Shown: positions 1,862 to 51,113 of the stretch, one piece after another
Numbering within the stretch: the stretch's first letter is position 1
How the letters are laid out: every line of letters begins with the position of its first letter
Assembly (NCBI GenBank): GCA_965247895.1
Contig: OZ252046.1
Coordinates: forward strand, 3,319,155 to 3,383,154
Reading direction: 5' to 3'
Origin: Dehalococcoidia bacterium
Lineage (GTDB): Bacteria; Chloroflexota; Dehalococcoidia; UBA2979
Length of the DNA: 64,000 nucleotides
The notes under the pieces: model-generated
Seen by the model: only the letters and a program-made list of their open reading frames with translations
Databases searched by the model: none
What the model was told of the DNA's origin: nothing
Position numbers and translations under genes: made by a program

Positions 1862-1950
1862 GGAGGGGTCGCATAGTGGCCTAGTGCGGGCGCCTGCTAA
1901 GCGCTTATCCCTTTTCGGGATCGCGGGTTCGAATCCCGCCCCCTCCGCCA
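1862..1950 (+). tRNA. tRNA-Ser (anticodon GCU), class II with long variable arm, CCA encoded
   Basis: GGAGGGG acceptor stem pairs with CCCCTCC. Anticodon loop CUGCUAA gives GCU. T-loop GGTTCGAATCC. Long variable arm UAUCCCUUUUCGGGAUC. 89 nt. Confidence 0.85.
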
Positions 1951-4124: not shown

Positions 4125-6626
4125 CTAGTCGAGCTCGATGAAGCCGATGATCCGCAGCCAGCGCCCCTCCCCGACGACCTCGCCGTCGAGCAGGATCTTG
4201 CAGGGTTGCCCGGGGTTCTCGGGGCAGTCGGTGGTGGCGCGGGGAGGCGGGTGGAAGCGCGCGAGGTAGTCGGCGCTGTCCATCATCTCGGTCTCGCCCG
4301 TGTTCACGTCGAGGACGGAGACATCGGCGCGCTCCGCTTCGTGATCGAGGCGCTGGACATCGAAGCGAAACAGGTCGGGCCAGGCTCCACTCGACCAGGC
4401 GAACTGGTCAGCGGAAGCCCACTCCCAGTGGTAATCCTGCAAGGATGCAGCAGTCTCTACCGACCGGAGGACACGATCGGTCTCGAAGTCGCGGATGTCG
4501 AAACTCCGCCAGCTCCGGTCCGTGTATTCGTCGGAGCCCTCAGCTTGCCCGAGGACGATGTAGCGGGCGTCTGGCGAGAGGCAAGAGAGCGCAGCACCTT
4601 TGCTCGTGTACAGGTCCGTGACGCAGGGAACCAGGCGAAGCCTGCCGTCGAGCGTGCCGATCACGCCGTTGGCATACCCGTCTTCCCCAGCCGCCTTGAT
4701 GAGCCACAGCAGCACCGCTTCGGAGTCCGAGGTCCACGCGTTCTCACCCCAGTCACCCAACTGCACGTCCCAGTAGAAGCTGTCGCTGCGAAGTTTCAGA
4801 CCCAACGCGGAGGGGAGGTCGTCGTCCTCATGACGCAGAGTCTCGTCGCCGGAAGGAAGGCGGAGAACGGTGGTGTGGGCAGGATGATCCGTCGTGCCGT
4901 CATGGAGCCCGTGGAAGGTCACCACTACCTTGCGACCGTCGGGCGATACCCGGAACGCGTTCGGCCACGGTCGCCCTTCGTGCAGCGTTTCAATTTGGCC
5001 GTCCGGGGCAATCCAAACCAGCTCCTGGTCGATTGCCGCGACGAGGCCACCGTACGCGGCCTGTACGGAAGTGCCGCCTCGATAGTTCACGACGAGCCAG
5101 TCCCTGCCCGTGCCCTCGTCATAGGCGATCGCCAGCCTCGGCGTGGTTGGATGGGGCCTGTATACCTCATAGAGCAGGAGCGGGCCCACCATCTCTTCGC
5201 GAGGTGGCGGAGGCGGCGGGTCGGGCTCCACTGCGACGCTAATCGGTGAGATGCCTCGGACCTCGAGGTCACCCGCAGGCTCGATGAAGCCAAGATACCC
5301 GAACCACCCAGCTGCTCCTTCCCAGATGACCCGGCCGTCGTAACAAATCCGGCGCACGGAGGACCACGGGCCACAGTCGCTCCCGATAGGCCCCCGCAGC
5401 AGTGCTTCGACTTCGGAGGTGAGGGGCTGGACTTCCCCGGTGGCGACATCGAGAACCTTGGGAACGCCAAGGCCGGACTGAAAACCCACGCTCCAATCAG
5501 GTTCGGGAGGCAGTTCGTTGAAGAAGACGTGGCGCCGGTCCTCCCAGACCGGCTCCTTCGGGAGGCCCGGGCCCCACCAGCTGTCGCCTGCGTAGTCCCC
5601 GTGCTGATACAGGCCGCCGCCGTCCTGGGCCTGGACCGTCCAGAGCACATCCCCCGTCTCGAGATCGAACACGTCCAGGCTGGCCCACACGCTCCGGTCG
5701 TGGTGGGGGTTGAGCGAGATGGCGCCAACCGCTTCTCCAACGCGCAGGGCGTAGCGCAAGTCAACGGACACATGCCAGTCCTCCGGCAGCACATCGAACG
5801 TGCCGTCCAGCCGGAGGAGCCCGGGCCGCCTCCGTTCTTCTACCAGGAGTGCGGTACCGTCCCCATGCCAACGCTGCCGGAGGTCTTCTGATGAACCGAC
5901 GGAGATCGGGTCAAAACGCCTCCCGGTGTCCAGGAGTTCCTCGCCAGTGGCGATGTCGACGACGAGCACAGCAGCGTGGCGGGTGCCCCCGGAAGGGTTG
6001 ACGCCGTACACGATGGCTACTTTCGTTCCATCGGGTGAGACTTCGAGCCAGGAGATCTGGTCGTATTCGAAGAGGACGCTCTCCGTCTCGCCTTCGAGGC
6101 TGACGCGGCGGACTTCGTCTTCAGCCCAGACGACGAGACTCTCGCCCGCCACCTGCGCAGCGGACCGTTCCAGACCGCTCCCCAGGACGGTGTGCGGGTA
6201 GTCGAAGGCGACCCAATACCGGTCGGCGCTCAGATCGTAGACGTAGACAAGTCTCGTCTCCGTCCGCCCCCACGGTGGTCGGCTCCTGTCTACCTCCGAT
6301 ACTTCGTAGAAGACGAGCAGCGGGCCACTCACGGTCACGGGTGTGGGCGCCGGTTCGGGGGTCGGGGTCGGCGTGACTGTCGCCGCGGGTGTCGGGGTGG
6401 CCGTGGGCGTGGGGGTCGGCGGCGCGGTGGCGGACGGCGTCGGGGTCGGTGTGGGCGTCGTGACGAGGGTGGGCGTCTCCCTCTGAGTGGGACTTGGAGT
6501 GGCGGTCGTCGTTTGGGTGACTTGCGGCGTGGTAACGGGGACGGGCGCGATGCCCTCGTCGCCACTGCACGACAACGCTACTAGCAGCATCGGTATCGCC
6601 AGCGATCCGAGGAGTCCGCGCATCAT
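4125..6626 (-). CDS. secreted lipoprotein with Pro/Thr-rich linker and two tandem copies of a ~380-aa beta-propeller-like module
   Basis: ORF 4125..6689; likely start MMRGLL (6626). Lipobox LVALSC. PT linker TPTPTPTPSATAPPTPTPTATP. Two halves both begin GPLL(V/L)(F/Y)EV and end C..DG.V.GEG.W..I.GFIE(P/L). No HExxH or other catalytic motif recognised. Confidence 0.7.
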   Translation of the reverse strand: MMRGLLGSLAIPMLLVALSCSGDEGIAPVPVTTPQVTQTTTATPSPTQRETPTLVTTPTPTPTPSATAPPTPTPTATPTPAATVTPTPTPEPAPTPVTVSGPLLVFYEVSEVDRSRPPWGRTETRLVYVYDLSADRYWVAFDYPHTVLGSGLERSAAQVAGESLVVWAEDEVRRVSLEGETESVLFEYDQISWLEVSPDGTKVAIVYGVNPSGGTRHAAVLVVDIATGEELLDTGRRFDPISVGSSEDLRQRWHGDGTALLVEERRRPGLLRLDGTFDVLPEDWHVSVDLRYALRVGEAVGAISLNPHHDRSVWASLDVFDLETGDVLWTVQAQDGGGLYQHGDYAGDSWWGPGLPKEPVWEDRRHVFFNELPPEPDWSVGFQSGLGVPKVLDVATGEVQPLTSEVEALLRGPIGSDCGPWSSVRRICYDGRVIWEGAAGWFGYLGFIEPAGDLEVRGISPISVAVEPDPPPPPPREEMVGPLLLYEVYRPHPTTPRLAIAYDEGTGRDWLVVNYRGGTSVQAAYGGLVAAIDQELVWIAPDGQIETLHEGRPWPNAFRVSPDGRKVVVTFHGLHDGTTDHPAHTTVLRLPSGDETLRHEDDDLPSALGLKLRSDSFYWDVQLGDWGENAWTSDSEAVLLWLIKAAGEDGYANGVIGTLDGRLRLVPCVTDLYTSKGAALSCLSPDARYIVLGQAEGSDEYTDRSWRSFDIRDFETDRVLRSVETAASLQDYHWEWASADQFAWSSGAWPDLFRFDVQRLDHEAERADVSVLDVNTGETEMMDSADYLARFHPPPRATTDCPENPGQPCKILLDGEVVGEGRWLRIIGFIELD

Positions 6627-6692
6627 GAAGCGAGCACAGCGACGGGAGTCGCGAAAACCGCCGTTCGCCTGTGGGGGCAAGTTCGGCATCGT

Positions 6693-8246
6693 CTAGTTGC
6701 TCCGACCATCCTCGCAGGCAGGGAGGTCGAGAGCCGCGACACTGCGGTACCAGGTGAGCCCCTTCGGGATACAGCCGGTGAACTGGTTGTCCTGGAGATA
6801 CAGGAACGCCAGGTTGGTGAGGTCGCCCAGCTCCGGGGGGATCGGCCCGCTCAACTCGTTCTCACGGAGGTCCAACTGCCGCAGGTTAGCGAGGCGACCC
6901 AACTCCGGGGGGATCGGTCCGCTCAACTCGTTCTCAGCCAGCGACAGGTTCTCCAGACTTGTGAGGCGGCCCAGTTCCGCCGGAATTGGTCCGCTCAACT
7001 CATTCTCACTCAGCCACAGGCTTTCCAGATTGGCAAGGCCGCCCAGTTCCGCCGGGATCGGTCCGCTCAACTCGTTCCGACCGAGGCTCAACGTCCTCAG
7101 GTTAGCGAGTCGCCCCAGCTCCGGAGGGATGGGCCCGCTCAGCGCATTGCCACCGAGCCACAGGTACTCCAGATTGGAAAGTCCGCCCAACTCCGCCGGG
7201 ATCGGCCCGGCCAACGTGTTGCCAGCGAGGTTCAACCGCGTCAGGTTGGCAAGGCGGCCCAGCTCCACCGGGATCGGCCCGCTCAACGAGTTGGCACCAA
7301 GGGACAGGTGCTCCAGATTGGCGAGTCGGCCCAGCTCCGCCGGGATCGGCCCGCTCAACTCGTTCCCACCGAGGCTCAGGCGCTCCAGATTGGCAAGGCG
7401 CCCCACCTCTGCCGGGAGTGGTCCACTGAGCCTGTTGGTCCCGAGCTGCAGGTCGCGGAGGTTGACGAGGCGCCCCAATTCCGGCAGCGGGCCGCTCAAT
7501 TCGTTGTGGTTGAGATACAGGTACTCGAGCCTGGAGAAGTCTCGCAGCTTCGCCGGGATCGGCCCGCTGAGCTTGTTGCCCTGTAGCCACAGGGCGCGGA
7601 GGTTGACGAGGAGGCCCAGTTCCACCGGGATCGCGCCGCTCAGTTCGTTCTCGTTGAGATAGAGGTACGTCAGCGCAGAAAGGCGCCCCAGGTCCGCGGG
7701 GAGCGTGCCGCTCAACCCGTTCTCATCAAGGCCAAGTTCCGTGACGCGGCCCGTCCTCGATGTCCCCACGCCATACCACTCACTGAGCGGTCCGCTGGTG
7801 AGCCAGTTCGTGCTGTTGCGCCAGTTCGCACCGTCCGTGGCCTCGTAGAGCGCCACAAGAGCCGCCCGGTCGGAGGCTACGGCACTCTCCGGTGCGGTCA
7901 CCGTCGGGGTGGTGGGTGTGGTCGCAGCGGCGGTGGTCGCGACCTCAGTTGGGGCGGCGGTCGGCGTCGGCGCGGCGTCGGGGGCCGGCGTCGGCGTTGG
8001 CGTGGGCTGCGGCGTGGCCGTCGCACGAGGCGTCGCGGTAGCGGCAGGCGTGGCTGTTGTGGACGGCGTAGCGGTAGCGGCGGGTGTTGGCGTGGCCGTC
8101 TCGCGAGGCACAACGGTTGGCGTCGCGGCGGGCGTGGTGGTCGCAGCCACGGTGGGCGAGGGAGCCACGCGGTCCTCGCCGCCCTCGCAGGCGAGCGTCA
8201 GCAGGGCGAGCAGGACGAGCAGCACTCCCGCGAGTCCGCGTGCCAT
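6693..8246 (-). CDS. leucine-rich-repeat lipoprotein with ~14 tandem 24-residue plant-specific-type LRRs
   Basis: Signal/lipobox LLALLTLAC, PT-rich linker, then repeated NELSGPIPAELGRLANLExLxL units. C-terminal Cys-containing cap (CIPKGLTWY...PAC). Its stop lies 4 nt from the downstream lipoprotein start, so probably an operon. Confidence 0.8.
   Translation of the reverse strand: MARGLAGVLLVLLALLTLACEGGEDRVAPSPTVAATTTPAATPTVVPRETATPTPAATATPSTTATPAATATPRATATPQPTPTPTPAPDAAPTPTAAPTEVATTAAATTPTTPTVTAPESAVASDRAALVALYEATDGANWRNSTNWLTSGPLSEWYGVGTSRTGRVTELGLDENGLSGTLPADLGRLSALTYLYLNENELSGAIPVELGLLVNLRALWLQGNKLSGPIPAKLRDFSRLEYLYLNHNELSGPLPELGRLVNLRDLQLGTNRLSGPLPAEVGRLANLERLSLGGNELSGPIPAELGRLANLEHLSLGANSLSGPIPVELGRLANLTRLNLAGNTLAGPIPAELGGLSNLEYLWLGGNALSGPIPPELGRLANLRTLSLGRNELSGPIPAELGGLANLESLWLSENELSGPIPAELGRLTSLENLSLAENELSGPIPPELGRLANLRQLDLRENELSGPIPPELGDLTNLAFLYLQDNQFTGCIPKGLTWYRSVAALDLPACEDGRSN
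6761..7751. repeat. ~72-bp tandem nucleotide repeats encoding the LRR units
   Basis: Near-identical 72-nt periodicity visible in the sequence. It generates the spurious + strand ORFs 6697..7662 and 7308..7586. Confidence 0.8.
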
Positions 8247-8393
8247 CCGCGGGGCGATGCGTTCGATGAGGAGGCGTGCGTCGTCCAGGGCAGCCCCTCC
8301 GATCCGCCGGGCACCGTGTACGACTGTAGGACGTTTCGCGGGTTCGGAGAGTTCCGCCGGGCCGGGATCAGCCCGCCGGTTGGGCCTGCGCCG

Positions 8394-9155
8394 CTACAGG
8401 TCGATCAGGCCGCCGTCGACGCCGAGCTCGACGCCCAGCACGTAGGAGGAGTCGTCCGAGGCGAGGAAGAGCACCGCCTTCGCGATCTCGTCGGGCTGGC
8501 CCTCGCGACGCATCGGGATGAGGTGGCGGCGGATGTACTCGCGCGTCCGCTCGTCCATCGTGGTGTCGAGGATCGGCGTGTCGATCAGGCCGGGGCGGAT
8601 CGCGTTGACGCGGATGCCGCGCCGCAGCAGCCCCGCGCCCAGCGAGCGCGCGAGCGACCGCGCCGCCGCCTTCGAGGCGCCGTAGACCGCGCCCGCGGCG
8701 TAGCCCGTTTCGGACGCGGCCGAGGTCATGATCACGATCGACCCGCCGTCGTTCATCCTCGGAGCGGCCTTCTGGACCGTGAAGAACACGGACTTGAAGT
8801 TGAGCGCCGCGACCGCGTCGAAGTCCTCCTCGGTCACCTCGAGGAAGGGCTGCGGCGGACTGTCCCCGCCCGCGTTCACGACCACGATGTCGATCGGCCC
8901 CAGCTTCGCGGCGGCCTCTGTGAACAGCGAATCGAGGTCGTCGACCGAGGTGACGTCGCAGGGGATGGCGATCGCCCGCTCACCGAGGGCAACCGAGGCC
9001 GCGTCTATCCTCCGGGGATCACGCCCGCAGACGGCGACGCGCGCGCCCTCGGCAAGGAACAGTCGGGCGACGGCGAGGCCGATCCCGCTCGTGCCGCCGG
9101 TAACGACGGCGACCTTGCCCTCGAGCTTGCCGCCTCGTGCGCGTTCGGTCGTCAT
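8394..9155 (-). CDS. SDR-family NAD(P)-dependent oxidoreductase
   Basis: TGGTSGIG glycine-rich motif, NAG motif, and catalytic YxxxK (YGASKAA). Confidence 0.85.
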   Translation of the reverse strand: MTTERARGGKLEGKVAVVTGGTSGIGLAVARLFLAEGARVAVCGRDPRRIDAASVALGERAIAIPCDVTSVDDLDSLFTEAAAKLGPIDIVVVNAGGDSPPQPFLEVTEEDFDAVAALNFKSVFFTVQKAAPRMNDGGSIVIMTSAASETGYAAGAVYGASKAAARSLARSLGAGLLRRGIRVNAIRPGLIDTPILDTTMDERTREYIRRHLIPMRREGQPDEIAKAVLFLASDDSSYVLGVELGVDGGLIDL

Positions 9156-9236
9156 GGTTACTGCGGCCTCCTCTGCGGTCGGAGCGTAGGCAGGGGTGCG
9201 GGGGGCGGCAACCGTGCGCGGGCGGGGTGGCTGCTG

Positions 9237-9797
9237 CTATTGCGCGGTCCTCTCTCGGAGTAGGTTCGCGACGTATGCCATGAAGCGCGTGGTGCGATCG
9301 CCCGCGGTAGCGGACGGCGGTGGCGCGGACCCTTGCCGGACCTCGGAGAGTTCGTCGTGGGCGAGCGAACTCCTCCACTTCCGGAGACGTTCGTCCGTCC
9401 AGGTAGCGCGGGCAGCCCGCTTCTCGATCCAGAGTGCGCTCGCGTCCCGGCTGAGGCGGTCGTCGGCGACGCGGAGCGCGAAGTCCACGAGACGATCGTT
9501 CGTCGTGAACAGCACGAAGCCATTGCGGAACAGGAACCACGCCATGGCGGTGACCGCCAGCCGTTTGTTCCCGTCTACGTACGGGTGGTTCTTGTTCAGG
9601 CTGTAGTGCAGCGCCGCCGCCTTCTGTTGAGCGGTGCGGTGGTGCGGCCAGTGCGGCTGAGCGAGGGCCGACTCCAGACGCGCGGTTCCCTGCGGCCCGG
9701 CCAGCTGGAAGGCTGGGGTTCCGGGAAACTGATCCTGCGTCAGCGCCTCGACGATGCTGTGGATCTCTCCCTCGTCGAGGTAGTGGAGGCGGCTCAT
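9237..9797 (-). CDS. doc: Doc (death-on-curing) / Fic-fold toxin, 186 aa with C-terminal extension
   Basis: Doc-type motif HPYVDGNKRLAVTAMAWFL. AAGGAAG SD 5 nt upstream of ATG 9797. Confidence 0.8.
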   Translation of the reverse strand: MSRLHYLDEGEIHSIVEALTQDQFPGTPAFQLAGPQGTARLESALAQPHWPHHRTAQQKAAALHYSLNKNHPYVDGNKRLAVTAMAWFLFRNGFVLFTTNDRLVDFALRVADDRLSRDASALWIEKRAARATWTDERLRKWRSSLAHDELSEVRQGSAPPPSATAGDRTTRFMAYVANLLRERTAQ

Positions 9798-9919
9798 TTC
9801 TTCCTTGGTCGATTGCCACCAACGAGCGTGGGGCTATGGACGGCGTACCCGATGGGGTTGTGGTCAGCACGAATCGTCGGCACCGGCCCCGCGAGTGTCA
9901 GGACTGGCGCCTGCGCCTG

Positions 9920-10115: not shown

Positions 10116-10997
10116 CTACAGCAGCCCGGCGTCCCGGAGCTGCTGCAGACACGTCTCGCCGATCTGCGAGGGGGAGTCGGCGACCATCGCGCCGGCGGCG
10201 CGGAGGGCGGCCTTCTTCGCGTCGGCGGTGCCCGCCTTGCCGGCGATGATCGCGCCGGCGTGGCCCATGCGACGGCCGGGCGGCGCGGTCGCGCCGGCGA
10301 TGAAGGCCGTCACCGGCTTCGACATCTGCGCGACGTAGGCCGCGGCCTCCTGCTCGGCGGTGCCGCCGATCTCGCCGATCAGCACCACCGCCGCCGTGTC
10401 CGGGTCCGCCTCGAACAGCGCCAGCGCCTCGGCCTGCGTGGTGCCGATGATCGGGTCGCCGCCCACGCCGACGCTCGAGGACTGGCCGACGCCGGCCCGC
10501 GTCAGCTGGTCGACCGTCTCGTAGACGAGCGTGCCCGAGCGCGAGATCACGCCGACGCTGCCTTCGAGGTAGACGTCGGTCGGCATGATGCCGGCCCGCG
10601 CGCGGGCGGCGGGCGTGATGACGCCGGGGCAGTTGGGGCCGATCAGCGTCGTCTCCATGCCCTGCAGCGCGCGCTTCACGCGCACCATGTCCAGCACCGG
10701 GATGCCCTCGGTGATGCAGATCGCGACGGGGATGCCGGCGTCGGCGGACTCGAGGATGGCGTCCGCGGCGAAGGGTGCGGGCACGAAGATCAGCGAGACG
10801 TTCGCGCCGAACTCCTCGACGGCCTCGCGCACGGTGTTGCGGATCGGCGTGTCCTCGAGGACCTGGCCGCCGCGGCCGGGCGTGACGCCGCAGACGATCT
10901 GCGTGCCGTACTCGCGGCTGGTCTTCGCCTCGCGCTGGCCGGCGCCGCCGAAGCCCTGGATGACGACGCGGCTGTTCTCGTCCATCAATACGCCCAC
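10116..10997 (-). CDS. sucD: succinyl-CoA synthetase alpha subunit
   Basis: [11 protein letters not shown]... and CoA-binding/His-phosphorylation region GHAGAIIAG. Start may be the internal Met at 10985. Confidence 0.9.
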
Positions 10998-11028
10998 GTG
11001 TACGCTCCCTCGCCCTGGCCTGCTCGGC

Positions 11029-12186
<1,158 letters not shown>

Positions 12187-17282: not shown

Positions 17283-19087
17283 CCCAGGCTCCGGACCAGA
17301 CTGTTTCAGCGGCCGAGGCGCCGCGCGTCACGATTCCCCCGGTGGTCGTCATCAGCGACCTCGCGGGCCTGCTCGGCATCACGCCCGTCGACGTGATCAA
17401 GGAACTGATGAAGAACGGCGTGATGGCGACCATCAACCAGGTCGTGGACTTCGACACGGCCGCCGTCGTCGCCGCCGACCTCGGGTACTCGCCCGAGGAG
17501 GAAGGCGGCGAGGAGGCCACAGCCGCTCCCGGCGAGGACGAGCCCGCTTCAACGTCGCGCCGCATCATCGAGGAGGGCGAAGACGCGCAACCGCGCGCAC
17601 CCGTAGTCACCGTGCTGGGCCACGTCGACCACGGCAAGACGACGCTGCTCGACACGATCCGGCGCGCCAGGGTCGTCGAGGGCGAAGCCGGCGGCATCAC
17701 CCAGCACATCGGCGCGTATCAGGCCGCCGCCCCGGACGGCCGCATGCTCACCTTCATCGATACGCCGGGCCACGCGGCGTTCACGGAGATGCGCGCGCGC
17801 GGCGCGCAGGTCACGGACATCGCGATCATCGTCGTCGCCGCCGACGATGGCGTGATGCCGCAGACGCGCGAGGCGATCGCCCACGCGCGGGCCGCCGGCG
17901 TGCCGATCGTGGTCGCGGTCAACAAGACGGACCTGCCGAACGCCAACCCCGACCGCGTCAAGCAGGAGTTGATGGGCGCCGAGCTCGTGCCCGAGGAGTT
18001 TGGCGGCGACACCGTCGTCGTGCCGATCTCCGCGCTCGCCGGCGACGGCATCGACGACCTGCTCGAGAACGTGCTGCTCGTCGCCGAACTCGAGGAGTTG
18101 AAGGCCAACCCCGATCGCAGTGCGATCGGCGTCGTGCTTGAGGCGGCGACCGACCCGCGGCGCGGCATCGCGGCGACGATCCTCGTGCAGACGGGCACGC
18201 TGCGCCGCGGCGACGTGATCCGCGCCGGGCTGGCCTACGGCCGCATCAAGGCGATGACGGACTCGGGTGGGCAGCAACTCAAGGAGGCGGGCCCCTCGAC
18301 GCCCGTGACGGTGCTCGGACTGAGCGAGGTACCGGCCGCGGGTGAGGGCTTCATGGCCATCAAGGACGAGCGCAGCGCCCGCGCCGAGAGCGAGGAACTG
18401 CGCCGCGCAGCCGACCGCGAGGGCAACGTCCGCACCGGCGTGACCCTCGACACGCTCTTCGGGGAGATCCACCGCGGGATGGTGCAGGACTTCAACATCG
18501 TGCTCAAGACGGACGTGCAGGGCTCGATCGAGCCGCTCGTGCGCGCCATCGAGGCCCTCGCCGTAGACGAGATCAACGTCAAGGTGATCCACGCCGCCGC
18601 CGGGACGGTCAACGAGTCCGACGTGAACCTCGCGGTCGCCTCGCAGGGCGTGATCATCGCCTTCAACACCCGTCCCGAGACCGGCGCGCAGCGCCTCGCC
18701 GACGCGGAGCACGTCGAGATCCGCGAGTACCGCGTGATCTACGAGGTGATCGAGGACATCGAGCAGGCCGTGCGCGGGATGCTGCAGCCGATCTACGAGG
18801 AGCGCCGCGACGCAGTCGTCGAGGTGCGCCAGATCTTCCGCCGCGGACGGCGCAACTCGATCGCCGGCTGCCTCGTGCGCGACGGCCCGGTCACGCGCGG
18901 CTCGCTCGCGCGGGTGATGCGCGGCGGCGAGGTGATTCGCGAGGCGCGCATCGATTCGCTCAAGCGCTTCCAGGAGGACGCGCGCGAGGTCGCCGCCGGC
19001 CTCGAATGCGGCATCACCGTGGACGGCTTCGAGGCCTTCGAGGAAGGCGACGAGATCGTCACCTACCACATGGAGCAGGTGCGCTAG
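17279..19087 (+). CDS. infB: translation initiation factor IF-2 (short N-terminal form, 602 aa)
   Basis: G-domain [21 protein letters not shown]. Confidence 0.9.
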
Positions 19088-28684: not shown

Positions 28685-29512
28685 GTGGTGAGCAGCGAAC
28701 CGGTCATCCCGCGCGAACAACGGCCAGCGATCGCGAACTACCTCTCGCAGCGCCTCGCCGGACCCGTCTCGGTCGAGACCTGGACGCAGCGCGAATCCAG
28801 GCTCGTGCGCACGGACCGCGACCCCTGCATGTTCTGCGAACCGGTCACCAGCGCCGCGAGGCAGCTCGCCGCGCTGCACCCGCTGATCTCGCTCACGCCC
28901 TACGACATCGACAAGCACGCCGACCGCGCCGCCGAGGCCGGCATCGAGCGCCCGCCCGTGACCGTGCTGCGAGGCCGCAACGGCCGCGAGGTCCGCTTCA
29001 CGGGCCTCTGGTCCGGCCTGCTCTTCACGGCCTTCATGGACGCCGTGGTCTACGTCGGCGCGGGCGTCGCGCCGATCAACCCGGAGACGCGCGAGGCGCT
29101 GCAAGCGATCGAGGAAGAGCTGCGGCTCGAGCTGCTCGTCGCGCCCTACGACCCGTACTCGGCCTACACGCTGCGGGTCGCCGCGGCGTTCGCCGTCGAG
29201 GCGCGTCGCGTGCGCCTCGAGGTGATCGAGATCTCCGAGTTCCCGCGGCTGGCGCAGACGCGGATGGTCACCGAGGTCCCGGTGCTGCTGGTCAACGGTC
29301 GCCGCTTCACGGGCGCCTGGGACGAGAACGACCTGCTGGAGCAGTTGAAGCGCGTCGCCGCCAGCGACTCGGAGCCGGTGATCCGCGAGCGCATCCTCGT
29401 CTCGCCCTTCATGGACGTCGACCAGGCGCAGGCGTTCGCCGCCCGCGAGGCGCAGGGCGTCGCCCGCCAGCCGCCCACGACCCCGGGCGGCCTCATCATC
29501 CCCGGCCGCTAG
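28685..29512 (+). CDS. thioredoxin-fold protein with two TRX-like domains (CxxC only in the first)
   Basis: CMFC redox motif; second domain ...VPVLLVNGRRF... lacks cysteines. The last 5 codons lie in a 44-bp sequence repeated at 31526. Confidence 0.5.
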   Translation: MVSSEPVIPREQRPAIANYLSQRLAGPVSVETWTQRESRLVRTDRDPCMFCEPVTSAARQLAALHPLISLTPYDIDKHADRAAEAGIERPPVTVLRGRNGREVRFTGLWSGLLFTAFMDAVVYVGAGVAPINPETREALQAIEEELRLELLVAPYDPYSAYTLRVAAAFAVEARRVRLEVIEISEFPRLAQTRMVTEVPVLLVNGRRFTGAWDENDLLEQLKRVAASDSEPVIRERILVSPFMDVDQAQAFAAREAQGVARQPPTTPGGLIIPGR

Positions 29513-29541
29513 CCGGGGCGGCGAGCGATGTAGATCGCGAT
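29498..29541. repeat. 44-bp direct repeat, copy 1 (relic of the metalloprotease gene 3' end)
   Basis: catccccggccgctagccggggcggcgAgcgaTgtagatCgcg matches 31526..31569 with 3 mismatches. Contains a 7-bp stem hairpin CCCCGGC-cgcta-GCCGGGG. The minus strand encodes ...IAIYIARRPG*, like the metalloprotease C-terminus GGAIYVARRPG*. Confidence 0.6.
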
Positions 29542-31528
29542 CACGGAGTAGTGAGTTCGAACGTCCCGCAGTTGCTGGTGCTGATGCTGGACCACTCCGC
29601 TTGTACTTCGAAGGCGACTCGTCCGGGGCCTGATGCGACGCGGTGGCTGTTGTCGCGGTAGACGCGGCACAGGTTGCCGGTGTTGGTGGCGGCGTACGTG
29701 CCCGGAGCGAGTTCGGAGGGCACGAGGTAGACGCCGTCACCGAAGGAGGCGAGGCGGCTGGGAGTGTGGAGTTCGAACGTACCGCAGTCCCTGACGCGGA
29801 TGCTAGGCTACTCGGGCATTACCTCGAAGGTTATCCGTCCGGGCCCGGACGCCACGAGGCGGCTGTTCTCGCGGTAAACGCGGCATGAGTTGTCTGGGTC
29901 GGCGGCGCGGTACGTTCCCGGTGCGAGTTCGGAGGGCACGAGGTAGACGCCGTCACCGAAGGAGGCGAGGCGGCTGGGAGTGTGGAGTTCGAACGTACCG
30001 CAGTCCCTGACGCGGATGCTGGGCCACTCGGGCATTACCTCGAAGGTTATCCGTCCGGGTCCGGACGCCACGAGGCGGCTGTTCTCGCGGTAAACGCGGC
30101 ATGAGTTGTCTGAGTCGAGGGCGCGGTACGTTCCCGGTGCGAGTTCGGAGGGCACGAGGTAGACGCCGTCACCGAAGGAGGCGAGGCGGCTGGGAGTGTG
30201 GAGTTCGAACGTACCGCAGTCGCTGACGCGGATGCTGGGCCACTCGGGCATTACCTCGAAGGTAATCCGTCCGGGCCCGGACGCCACGAGGCGGCTGTTG
30301 TCGCCGTAAACGCGGCATGAGTTGTCCGTGTCGGTGGCGCGGTACGTTCCCGGCGCGATCTCGGAAGGCACGAGGTAGACGCCGTCACCGAAGGAGGCGA
30401 GGCGGCTCGGAGTGTGGAGTTCGAACGTTCCGCAGTCGCTGACGCGGATGCTGGGCCACTCGGGCACTACCTCGAAGGTTATCCGTCCGGGGCCTGATGC
30501 GACGAGGCGGCTGTTGTCGCCGTAGACGCGGCATGAGTTGTCCGTGTCGGTGGCGCGGTACGTTCCCGGCGCGATCTCGGAAGGCACGAGGTAGGTGCCG
30601 TCACCGAACGCTGCGGGAGCCGCAGCCGTTGGTGTGGGTGCGGGCGTCGCCGCCGCTGCGGATGTTGGCGTAGGAGTGGGCGCGGCCATCGCCGCCGTGG
30701 GCGTGAGCGTAGGTGTGTGCGCGTCGGCCCCCGCCGCCGTGGGCGTGGGCGTGGGCGGGGCCGTCGCTGCCGCTGCGGACGTTGACGTAGGAGCGGGCGC
30801 GGCCGTCGTCGCCGCCGCGGGCGTCGGCGTAGGTGTGTGCGCGTCGGCCCTCGACGCTGTGGGCGTCTCTGTCCTCGCCGCCACAGGCGTGGGCGTAGGT
30901 GAGGGGATGGCGACCCTCGCTGCAGCGGGCGTTGGCTTTGGTGTGGGTACAGACGGAGCCGCGCGTTGAGCGCGGGTTGGTGTTGCGGTTACGGCGTTCG
31001 AGCGGCTGAGAGTCGGCGCGGGAGTCGATCGGCGCAGGGGTGTCGTCGTTGCAGTGCGGGGCGCCACCGTGGCGCGCGCTGTGGCCGGTGGTGTTGAACT
31101 GTCGTCCGACTGCATTTGTCCGACGATGGCTCGACCGACAATGCCGACCGCGAGGACAGCGAGTAGCAGAGTCCACGGCCCGATCCTCGATCGTGAGCGG
31201 CTTGGTGGTGACTCAGGGCTGGCTTGTCGCGGCCTGCTCCGGGTGCCCTGCGTGCCGATCGCGGTTCAGATCCCGAGGTGCGGCCACCCGTATCAGCACG
31301 CGGCGTTCCGGCCCGCCACATGTCGTACGCGCGCCGCTGCTCTGCCCTCGACAGAGTCTCGAACGCGGCGTTGAGCCGTACCATGCGGGTGGCATCCGGC
31401 TCGGAGCTGCTGTCCGGGTGGTACTTGCGGGCGAGGCGACGGTAGGCGGCTTGAATGACCTCGGGCGAGGCGTTCGTGGAGACCTCAAGTTCCTCGTAGA
31501 GATCGAAGTCGGGAAAGCCCTCGCTCAT
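29541..31528 (-). pseudogene. disrupted gene: N-terminal J-domain, TM helix, Pro/Thr-rich linker, 5 x ~60-aa Cys-containing tandem repeat domains
   Basis: Frame 1 (ORF 30989..31528) carries a DnaJ J-domain DFDLYEELEV...YRRLARKYHPD, then garbage-like R-rich text. A different frame holds the TM helix IGPWTLLLAVLAVGIVGRAIVG, the PT linker and repeats (ORF 29808..31115), with no start codon before the TM helix. The last repeat is cut by TAG at 29808-29810, where the other repeats have TGG (Trp). ORF 29541..29723 is the remaining tail. Confidence 0.55.
29545..30600. repeat. ~180-bp near-identical tandem repeats (about 5.8 units) encoding the repeated extracytoplasmic domain
   Basis: Repeated peptide FGDGVYLVPSE(I/L)APGTYRA.D.DNSCRVY(G/R)(D/E)NSRLVASGPGRITFEVMPEWPSIRV(S/R)DCGTFELHTPSRLAS. 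Units differ by only a few nucleotides. Confidence 0.8.
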
Positions 31529-31569
31529 CCCCGGCCGCTAGCCGGGGCGGCGCGCGACGTAGATGGCGC
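31526..31569. repeat. 44-bp direct repeat, copy 2 (true 3' end of the metalloprotease gene, overlapping the J-domain gene start codon)
   Basis: Same sequence as 29498..29541 with 3 mismatches. Confidence 0.6.
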
Positions 31570-50701: not shown

Positions 50702-51113
50702 TCGTCGCACTTCTGGGCAGGCCCCAGACTCACGGTCACCGTACCGAGGCCCCGTCATGCTCGCGTCGCCGATGACGCCGCCAGAAGTCTTCTGCGCTCG
50801 GACCAGATCGCTGCCCGGCGACTCGCGCCCGCCTGCGGCAGTGTCCGGCCCAGCATCGAATAGCAGGTGGTGGGTGGCGCGAGACGAGGCTATCGGGTCG
50901 GGTTGCTCGTGGCTGGCGACGCACACCTTGGCCTGCCCCCACAGGCGGTTGCTCGCTGAGGGCTTTTCGGACACCGAGACCGAGCGGCGTCTCGGTAGGA
51001 CGCGCCGGGCGTGCAGTCGCTTCAAGCTGCCGCGGGAGGTCGAAGAACTTGAGGCTCGCCCTGTTCGAACTCAGGGCGCCGGAGGTCGCTGCAGCGTTCG
51101 CTCGCAGCCCTCG

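Follow-up and report, generated by a model that had tools for sequence, protein, structure and literature searches.

The J-domain gene on the minus strand of the 64-kb window (the whole stretch of Dehalococcoidia DNA that was analysed) is, judged from its sequence, probably a pseudogene, a recently inactivated copy of a gene whose product would be a class C J-domain protein of about 662 aa with a membrane anchor. It runs from an ATG at 31528 to a final TGA at 29541-29543; its frame is disrupted relative to intact orthologues, and no alternative start rescues the product. The original prediction had left three options, namely a fresh pseudogene, a sequencing problem or a recoded gene, and the first of these is the best supported: by the types of lesion (a deletion outside any homopolymer, next to a substitution, and two transitions in repeat unit 4), by the intact state of 11 of 11 neighbouring genes, by independent lesions in relatives, several of which (IS insertions among them) are impossible as read errors, and by the dN/dS of the coding sequence. 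The fusion itself, in which a J-domain is joined through a transmembrane (TM) helix and a stalk to an array of repeated domains, is a rare but real bacterial gene.

The N-terminal domain matches Pfam PF00226 over the whole profile (positions 1-63 of 63, residues 9-69; 63 bits, cut-off 27.8, E=2.9e-17), and its HPD tripeptide (residues 37-39, between helices II and III, in the context ...ARKYHPDSS...) is invariant across the homologue alignment. Full-length DnaJ and CbpA models match only residues ~9-85, with 40-60 bits against cut-offs of 300-600. A whole-profile J-domain with HPD, and with no G/F region, zinc finger or C-terminal substrate-binding domains, is what defines class C (type III). 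The DjlA equivalog model PRK09430, whose cut-off is 162 bits, gives only 18.7, so the protein is not a member of that family. Most likely the gene product is a membrane-anchored J-domain protein of class C (type III) that was not previously described. A Pfam profile search of the protein returned no domain besides the J-domain; the local copy of Pfam did not include PF27111, and the repeat region therefore went unmatched, giving only noise.

As had been predicted, the J-domain is followed by a single TM helix, a Pro/Thr stalk and Cys-containing repeats (Table 1), and these are read in a different frame, displaced by -1 from that of the J-domain. Over ~280 nt the two overlap with no stop in either. 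The TM/repeat frame is bounded upstream by a TGA, also as first described, and between that stop and the TM helix it contains no ATG, GTG or TTG; its first start is the ATG at 31115, past the helix. Open frame A is authentic only for its first ~98 codons, to ~31234, and the remainder is out-of-frame read-through, 81 of its 179 residues being an out-of-frame translation of conserved TM/linker coding sequence. A second ORF, of 435 aa, spans 29808-31115. The stalk consists largely of Ala (49), Thr (40) and Pro (35), and PT stalks are also found in other envelope proteins of the window. A peptidase of 472 aa neighbours the J gene; an exact look-up in the contig collection gave no entry for it or for the 179-aa J ORF.

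Table 1. Features of the J gene and its borders (positions of the window)
Feature	Coordinates	Strand	Remarks
Open frame A (ATG 31528 to stop 30989)	30989..31528	-	179 aa; ORF listing
J-domain, residues 9-69	31322..31504	-	PF00226 match; HPD at 31412-31420
Frameshift lesion	31221..31240	-	comparison with in-frame relatives
Last upstream stop (TGA) in TM/repeat frame	31266..31268	-	
Single TM helix IGPWTLLLAVLAVGIVGRAIVG	31119..31184	-	sequence; RSRSR before, QSDD after
170-aa Ala/Thr/Pro-rich stalk	30609..31118	-	contains degenerate 39-120-nt repeats
Five tandem 216-nt (72-aa) Rv1352/Rv1906c-type domains	29544..30608	-	2 Cys per unit
Repeat units 1-5	30608-30393, 30392-30177, 30176-29961, 29960-29745, 29744-29544	-	
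In-frame TAG, unit 4	29808..29810	-	TGG in every other unit
Natural stop of J gene (TGA)	29541..29543	-	
44-nt direct repeat, 5' copy	31525..31568	.	PepMA C-terminal codons and stop, CTAG hairpin, J gene ATG
44-nt direct repeat, 3' copy, 93% identical	29496..29539	.	PepMA-tail relic (AIYIARRPG*), CTAG hairpin, end of convergent PDO/Trx-like gene

The repeat array was first described as about 5.8 domains of 60 aa. Tandem Repeats Finder (TRF) revises this to a period of 216 nt, or 72 aa, in 4.9 copies (score 1641, 91% matches, no indels), that is, five units. At the DNA level units 1-4 are 90-97% identical to each other, and unit 5 is 75-78% identical to the rest. The unit matches the Rv1352/Rv1906c model NF053833 with 54.7 bits (cut-off 25, E=9.6e-15, two stretches in a two-unit query), and its homologues are assigned to PF27111 by precomputed Pfam. 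Across 37 diverse units F1, G4, C26 and C59 are invariant, which bears out the two Cys per domain noticed at the outset, and V8, P14, G15, Y17 and G60 are conserved in at least 90%; both this Cys pair and the F-G-D-G...P-G-x-Y N-terminal motif are present in the repeat unit. Each domain probably holds one disulfide. Structure prediction, which had been proposed as a check, gives a confident all-beta AF2 model of one unit (pLDDT 90.6, 7 beta strands). A PDB sequence search with the unit found no match, and a Foldseek search of the model against the PDB returned nothing at E <= 0.001, the best hits being generic beta-sandwiches (E=0.24, TM about 0.47), so that the predicted fold is put no finer than "small beta-sandwich". 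The array is predicted to be extracytoplasmic in view of its secreted founder, the charges flanking the TM helix and the PT stalks on other envelope proteins of the window. That founder, Rv1352, is an O-glycosylated protein with a Sec/SPI signal that occurs in the culture filtrate of M. tuberculosis (PMC7053730).

Two lesions disrupt the window copy. One is a frameshift, at first placed at about 31266, which the in-frame relatives locate at 31231-31234, where the window reads GGAGCAG-GCCGCGAC and the relatives read GGAGCAGCGCAGCGAC. A single nucleotide is absent between 31234 and 31233, and an A>C substitution lies at 31231 (GGAGCAG then GCCGCGACAAGCC in the window versus GGAGCAGCGCAGCGACAAGCC in the syntenic relatives L001-L004). 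At this site the frame is kept in each of the six syntenic relatives (L001-L006), in L005 and L006 with a few bases different. The frameshift lies in unique sequence outside the repeats, with no homopolymer, and a JGI metagenome scan for the site, in either allele, gave 0 matches. The other lesion is the TAG. It does replace a TGG, as first reported, but it sits in unit 4 of 5 and not in the last repeat, and a unique CCC>CCT change lies in the codon after it. These are two transitions 4 nt apart, and both bases are absent from all other units in the window, L001 and L002; the TAG is therefore not a chimera of units.

The control relied on for frame integrity was a comparison of the neighbouring genes with their L002 orthologues, in which all 11 (about 9.5 kb) proved to be full length and in a single frame. 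A GC3 frame plot and codon-score gene tiling of the 64 kb, in which frame switches coincide with ORF ends, are too noisy in 70% GC DNA to prove the absence of other frameshifts. Elsewhere in the window, four contiguous same-frame ORFs at 4125-9833 were considered as nonsense-broken fragments and rejected as such, being four distinct genes.

The gene order RF-PepMA-J gene-PDO-CDP-OH-GT4 is common to seven genomes, and in six of them (the window, L001-L004 and L006) the J gene is broken, only L005 being fully intact among the syntenic copies. The damage differs from genome to genome. In L003 an IS21 element sits inside the array and 2 nt are inserted in the J/TM linker. L002 has an IS481-like element directly upstream and, besides this, a duplication of 5 nt and an insertion of 16 nt. 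Frameshifts occur in the stalk of L004 and in the last unit of L006. The GT4 gene of L001 is split as well, within 13 kb of the J gene.

A search for intact homologues in relatives, as the original prediction had proposed, was successful. The same J-TM-stalk-repeat architecture is unbroken in L005 (435 aa), P0010 (792 aa), P0012, P0013 and P0015, orthologues and paralogues together, and it is on this ground that the fused architecture is taken as a real gene. P0010, a paralogue whose array has five 216-nt units that are nearly identical, was recovered intact from the same sample as L002, and the identical protein came from contigs of two different assemblies; such arrays are thus not, as a rule, broken by the assembler. 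The distant intact paralogues lie in unrelated surroundings rich in IS elements and integrases, so that no partner gene is conserved; for this reason the idea that the gene works together with the flanking peptidase or disulfide oxidoreductase was rejected. A JGI metagenome protein-pattern scan found 80 loci that match the J-domain only, with an Rv1352-type unit in 0 of the 80.

Over the J-domain and TM segments dN/dS is 0.11-0.35, even in pairs of broken genomes. Between the window and L002 these segments differ by only 16 changes, 8 synonymous and 8 non-synonymous (dN 0.024, dS 0.070, omega 0.35), and the neighbouring genes give omega values of 0.06-0.53 with dN of 0.002-0.014. At the level of sequence divergence, the 0.11-0.35 range shows that the J gene was under selection until recently; long-standing pseudogenes are thereby excluded, and every lesion must be young. 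There is a faint hint that selection may have relaxed on the window's own branch.

Read from its domains, the intact protein would dock DnaK through an N-terminal cytoplasmic J-domain and trigger the DnaK ATPase. An Arg/Ser-rich linker would lead into the TM helix, whose flanks, RSRSR before and QSDD after, point to an N-in/C-out orientation under the positive-inside rule, and the stalk would carry five Rv1352/Rv1906c-type beta domains outside the cell, presumably displayed at the surface. A surface-exposed repeat array would thereby be coupled to the recruitment of Hsp70 on the cytoplasmic side of the membrane, comparable to the way DjlA brings DnaK there. In the window copy the 1-nt deletion at 31233/31234 would cut the J-domain off from the TM helix and all that lies downstream, and the TGG>TAG change would truncate the array even with the frame restored. 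The most that such a copy could yield is a soluble J-domain protein of 179 aa ending in a nonsense tail; it would make no surface protein. It is most likely dead, and its own significance is limited accordingly.

A possible but unlikely alternative is that the gene is intact in the organism and that one or both lesions are assembly or consensus errors, arising from mixed strains or mis-polishing at a GC-rich repeat locus of a MAG. The six broken syntenic copies apparently come from long-read metagenome assemblies and the intact L005 from a short-read one, to judge from contig names and, where the origin is visible, Mb-scale contigs; that six of seven copies are broken and the short-read copy is whole could reflect a consensus problem specific to this locus, and this counts against a pseudogene. 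The low dN/dS is that of a gene under selection, the split GT4 gene suggests an imperfect consensus in at least the L001 assembly, and the near-identity of units 1-4 invites read mis-mapping. That said, the deletion lies in unique, non-homopolymer sequence with a substitution alongside it, and the TAG is paired with a second change that is likewise absent from the other units. The run of 11 neighbouring genes shows no frame error, the IS elements and the 5- and 16-nt insertions of the relatives are real structural changes, and the five-unit array of P0010 is whole in the very sample that yielded L002.

A broader suggestion can be made, though only tentatively: that the J gene is a hot spot, inactivated repeatedly, independently and recently, in a clade of Dehalococcoidia that are probably associated with sponges. 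The suggestion draws on the seven syntenic genomes, six of them with differing lesions (point indels, a nonsense codon, IS21, an IS481-like element), and on purifying selection in the coding sequence. Such a pattern could fit fluctuating selection on a surface protein wired to cytoplasmic Hsp70, loss being repeatedly favoured, for example against phage or host recognition, with intact alleles persisting. In its explicit form, an on/off population polymorphism in which loss-of-function alleles recur and enjoy a passing advantage (in escaping phage or host recognition, for example) alongside intact alleles that persist in each population, the window would hold an 'off' allele. This is improbable. 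Different young lesions have struck one gene in at least six genomes whose historical dN/dS is low, the neighbouring genes of the window are untouched, the product is predicted to be surface-exposed, and distant paralogues sit in islands rich in IS elements and integrases; but neither a simple-sequence tract nor an invertible element for reversible switching was found, and locus-specific consensus errors would give the same pattern.

The presence of two ORFs, of 179 and 435 aa, might also be read as two separate functional genes, one for a soluble J-protein and one for an independently initiated membrane/repeat protein. This is very unlikely. The independent start that the original prediction named as a sign of two genes is not there: the sole second-frame start, ATG 31115, lies past the TM helix and would yield a product with no export signal yet with disulfide-type extracytoplasmic domains. 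Nearly half of the first ORF is the out-of-frame stretch already described, and the in-frame relatives encode a single polypeptide.

Recoding, in which the TAG would be read through or decoded and a programmed -1 ribosomal frameshift would link J-domain and TM helix, was rated less likely from the start and is scarcely credible: the stop-free overlap and the -1 direction of the shift would permit it, but there is no X_XXY_YYZ slippery heptamer anywhere in the J frame, no A/T run of at least 4 or G/C run of at least 5 within the 100 nt in which the shift would have to take place, none of the six syntenic relatives is out of frame at this point, L003 is shifted elsewhere, by its 2-nt insertion, and TAG, the most frequent stop codon of the window, ends 20 of 43 gene models, both flanking genes included. 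Reassignment of TAG (to pyrrolysine, for example) was rejected since TAG is not avoided as a terminator; the only unusual tRNA found is a tRNA-SeC, which reads UGA. That tRNA also prompted a look at selenoprotein read-through at the in-frame junction 19085-19087, which was rejected, the stop there being a TAG between infB and rbfA.

It is already known that class C J-domain proteins (JDPs) are very diverse, combining the J-domain with many other domains in 2,712 architectures (PMC10410713), and that membrane-anchored ones exist. DjlA of E. coli and other Proteobacteria resembles the window protein in being a class C JDP, with an HPD J-domain and no G/F region, zinc finger or C-terminal domains, and in having a cytoplasmic-membrane anchor with the J-domain facing the cytoplasm, as proposed here; it recruits DnaK to the membrane and has a link to envelope signalling via the Rcs system (PMC8215388, PMC11709261). 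The arrangement differs, however. DjlA has an N-terminal TM helix, a C-terminal J-domain and no extracytoplasmic domain, whereas the window protein has its J-domain at the N-terminus and would place about 530 residues outside the membrane. In DjlB and DjlC (tail-anchored JDPs of HscC) and in eukaryotic Sec63/ERdj-type JDPs a TM segment likewise holds the J-domain at the membrane, but with other partners and topologies and with no Rv1352-type domains or bacterial surface repeat array, so that only an architectural principle is shared. Rv1352 and Rv1906c of Mycobacterium tuberculosis (NF053833, PF27111) share with the window repeat a domain match above cut-off and the conserved Cys pair. The mycobacterial proteins are small, single-domain and secreted, in contrast to five domains in tandem on a PT stalk with a TM helix and a cytoplasmic J-domain, and the central loop of the domain is shortened in the window clade. 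No description was found in the literature of a bacterial J-domain joined via one TM helix to an extracytoplasmic tandem Rv1352/Rv1906c array.

The more interesting lead is not the window copy but the fact that the same gene is broken in differing ways in its close relatives. Should the intact family work as proposed, it would provide a direct physical link from a cell-surface structure to cytoplasmic Hsp70, in a phylum with poorly understood envelopes, and would give the first functional handle on the Rv1352/Rv1906c domain, which occurs in secreted antigens of M. tuberculosis.

The J gene of the window, on the minus strand, is laid out in two reading frames, a J-domain frame followed by one that holds a transmembrane (TM) helix, an Ala/Thr/Pro stalk and a tandem array. 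It is probably a fresh pseudogene of an undescribed protein joining a J-domain and a TM helix to Rv1352 repeats. The second frame, shifted by -1 relative to the first, is open from TGA 31266-31268 onward and, as the original prediction had it, lacks a start codon: no ATG, GTG or TTG precedes ATG 31115 in this frame, and that ATG falls after the helix. The arrangement that it described is real, and the details of its repeats needed correcting: the unit measures 72 aa rather than 60 (TRF period 216 nt), there are five units rather than about 5.8 (TRF 4.9 copies, 91% matches, no indels, score 1641), and the in-frame TAG lies in the penultimate unit (unit 4 of 5) rather than the last.

Features of the J gene, of the window and of relatives' loci (L001-L006, syntenic loci, with L002 the closest relative; L019-L021, loci of distant intact paralogues)
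Locus	Feature	Position	Strand	Content
Window	J frame	ATG 31528 to stop at 30989	minus	MSEGFPDFDLYEELEV...KYHPD...YDMWRA
Window	First coded stretch of TM frame, ahead of helix		minus	RQASPESPPSRSRSR
Window	TM helix	31184-31119	minus	IGPWTLLLAVLAVGIVGRAIVG
Window	Stalk after helix		minus	170 aa; 49 Ala, 40 Thr, 35 Pro
Window	Tandem array	end at TGA 29541-29543	minus	five 72-aa units
Window	44-nt direct repeat	29496-29539 and 31525-31568		copies 93% identical
Window	Convergent neighbour of J gene	28685-29512		119 bits vs TIGR02187 'PDO_seleno_TRX', under cut-off 185
Window	Two predicted envelope proteins	4125-6692 and 6693-8393	minus	N-terminal hydrophobic segment, then Pro/Thr-rich stalk; one has leucine-rich repeats
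Window	tRNA-SeC	50990-51085		anticodon TCA; predicted by ARAGORN, no Rfam report at gathering threshold
Window	Two ORFs (332, 150 aa)	367-1679	minus	visibly lower GC, atypical codon use; may be an integrated island
Window	tRNA-Ser	1862-1950		adjoins the two ORFs
L003	IS21-type insertion	~7300-9890		526-aa IstA-like ORF, IstB-like ORF; cuts array into 2 + 2 units
L002	IS481-like element	4805-5843		at 5' copy of the 44-nt repeat
L003	IS481-like element	just upstream of ~11381		at 3' copy, opposite orientation vs L002
L002	Array	7201-7870		+5 then +1 regain frame after about 100 codons
L001	Array	7135-8650		-1, +2, -1 add up to zero
L001	GT4 glycosyltransferase	10367-11541		split, 66-aa + 331-aa ORFs; one 391-aa gene in window and L002
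L019/L020	Distant intact clade (P0010, P0015)	7001-9379
L021	Distant intact clade (P0010, P0015)	7001-8143

Residues 9-69 of the J frame match the whole Pfam DnaJ profile (PF00226; E=2.9e-17, 63 bits vs a gathering score of 27.8), with the HPD tripeptide at residues 37-39. Matches to the NCBIfam DnaJ, CbpA and DjlA models are confined to this stretch of about 80 residues and score far under the cut-offs, so the product is placed among class C J-domain proteins (JDPs). From the window copy, no more than a soluble J-domain could be made, followed by 81 residues of nonsense sequence.

A two-unit query scored 54.7 bits (cut-off 25) against NCBIfam NF053833, "Rv1352/Rv1906c domain-containing protein", and PF27111 (Rv1352) is the precomputed Pfam assignment of repeat homologues; our Pfam scan was empty over the repeat region because the copy used lacked PF27111. 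Units 1-4 share 90-97% DNA identity, and unit 5 shares about 76% with the rest. Across an alignment of 37 diverse units, positions F1, G4, C26 and C59 are invariant, and AlphaFold2 predicts from it an all-beta domain of seven strands (mean pLDDT 90.6), for which sequence search and Foldseek returned no significant solved structural relative. The founder, Rv1352 of M. tuberculosis, has a Sec/SPI signal peptide, and its O-glycosylated form is present in culture filtrate (PMC7053730); non-replicating cells induce it strongly (PMC3670895).

The charges flanking the helix (RSRSR before, QSDD behind), the Cys pair of each unit and the Pro/Thr stalks of other predicted envelope proteins fit a predicted N-in/C-out topology, with the J-domain cytoplasmic and the array outside. 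Such stalks seem to be a general trait of exported proteins in the source organism, given the two further predicted envelope proteins that carry them.

Intact homologues, which the original prediction proposed to seek, exist in relatives, and the architecture is that of a real gene family. The product has 34 relatives among 5.8 billion proteins searched; uninterrupted J-TM-stalk-repeat proteins include P0010 (792 aa, five units), P0012, P0013 (712 aa, four units), P0015 (380 aa, two units) and P0023. A full HMMER pass covered 1.84 billion cluster representatives, with domains mapped locally on the best 150 hits; among these, about eight 50%-identity clusters combine J and Rv1352, and a TM segment lies behind the J-domain in 76 of 108 J-only hits. 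By genome scan the family sits in Dehalococcoidia (Chloroflexota) MAGs, and the Rv1352 unit occurred in none of 80 JGI metagenome loci picked by J-domain patterns. L005 belongs to the "SB06xx_bin" series, which also includes sponge-specific Entoporibacteria (PMC7883664), so a sponge origin is likely. The surroundings of the distant intact clade are rich in integrase, IS240, IS110 and rve genes, and an MmeI-type restriction-modification gene adjoins; its longer forms have an additional N-terminal segment of about 150 aa with its own TM helix.

The gene order RF - Peptidase_MA_2 - J gene - disulfide oxidoreductase-like - CDP-alcohol transferase - GT4 is common to seven genomes (the window and L001-L006). 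At the break, GGAGCAG-GCCGCGAC in the window aligns with GGAGCAGCGCAGCGAC in L001-L004, and L005 and L006 are likewise in frame there; by this syntenic alignment, the window lacks one nucleotide between 31234 and 31233 and has a different base at 31231. A JGI metagenome scan found no copy of the frameshift site, and a look-up of the window's proteins in the contig collection gave no match. The second lesion is the TAG at 29808-29810, in place of the TGG of every other unit. Another unique change, CCC>CCT, lies 4 nt away, and both changed bases are peculiar to this unit among all those of the window, L001 and L002.

The J gene is exactly flanked by the 44-nt direct repeat, which holds the CTAG common to both convergent neighbours' stop codons, a hairpin with a 7-bp stem, the J gene's ATG and the final codons of the peptidase gene (AIYVARRPG*); the 3' copy keeps a relic, AIYIARRPG*, and is itself kept in L001, L002, L004 and partly L005. 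This layout suggests that the J gene was inserted long ago between two convergent genes that overlap, and that their junction was duplicated. The end of the IS481-like element (…AACGTTCGTGGGAAGAAC…) abuts the hairpin CTAG in both L002 and L003, and the element seems to target this CTAG.

Nei-Gojobori dN/dS for the J+TM part only, with frames repaired, was 0.11-0.35 in all 21 pairs, pairs of broken genomes included, which argues that the gene was functional for most of the clade's history and that any inactivation in each lineage is recent. Between the window and L002 this part has only 16 changes (dN=0.024, dS=0.070, omega=0.35), and seven neighbouring genes have dN 0.002-0.014 and omega 0.06-0.53; some relaxed selection on the window copy would be compatible with these values, which are not decisive. 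Among the relatives, an IS21 element (istA/istB) interrupts the array of L003, and the J/TM linker that is hit in the window has independently gained 2 nt there. L002 has an IS481-like element immediately 5' of the gene, and its units hold insertions of 1 nt and 16 nt as well as a tandem duplication of 5 nt. L001 has three frame changes via four single-nucleotide indels, L004 a frameshift in the stalk and L006 one in the last unit. The array indels of L002 and L001 partially compensate one another, which may be accidental or reflect selection for a restored frame. That a surface protein has been inactivated repeatedly and independently across these relatives is conceivable, and on balance doubtful.

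Indirect evidence favours real mutation in the window. Each of the 11 neighbouring genes (about 9.5 kb in total) aligns over its whole length, without a change of frame, to its L002 orthologue (92.6-99.5% identity), both lesions are complex rather than homopolymer slips, and the relatives' lesions include IS elements, which cannot be read errors. In L002's sample, moreover, the array of the paralogue P0010, with five 216-nt units that are almost identical, was assembled intact, with an identical protein from contigs of two assemblies. These observations make assembly error rather unlikely as the source of the window lesions, even though the broken syntenic copies with contig names apparently all come from long-read metagenome assemblies (judging from contig names and lengths) and L005, the sole fully intact one, from an assembly of short reads whose repeats may be collapsed. 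Also against real mutation, L001, with its split GT4 gene, has other broken genes, through either lower consensus quality or wider gene decay. An on/off polymorphism in the population is distinctly improbable. Two separate genes are barely tenable and are taken as excluded, since the downstream product would have no membrane anchor. Expression by recoding is extremely unlikely: the J frame has no X_XXY_YYZ heptamer, the 100 nt where the shift must occur have no run of at least four A/T or five G/C, the syntenic relatives are in frame at this site, and TAG is a common stop, ending 20 of 43 predicted window genes, both neighbours of the J gene included.

What is observed is the set of domains and the order in which they stand, the lesions, and how the gene is conserved; beyond this, a function can be proposed for the intact protein. 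Its nearest functional precedent is DjlA, a partner of DnaK that serves envelope signalling at the membrane (PMC8215388, PMC11709261); the J-TM-Rv1352 protein, in contrast, does not score as a DjlA member and has the reverse domain order. As class C JDPs cover 2,712 architectures (PMC10410713), it ranks as a variant among them and not as a separate kind. Its cytoplasmic J-domain would recruit DnaK to the membrane, and the chaperone would thereby be brought directly under an extracytoplasmic stalk and an array of predicted disulfide-bonded beta domains.
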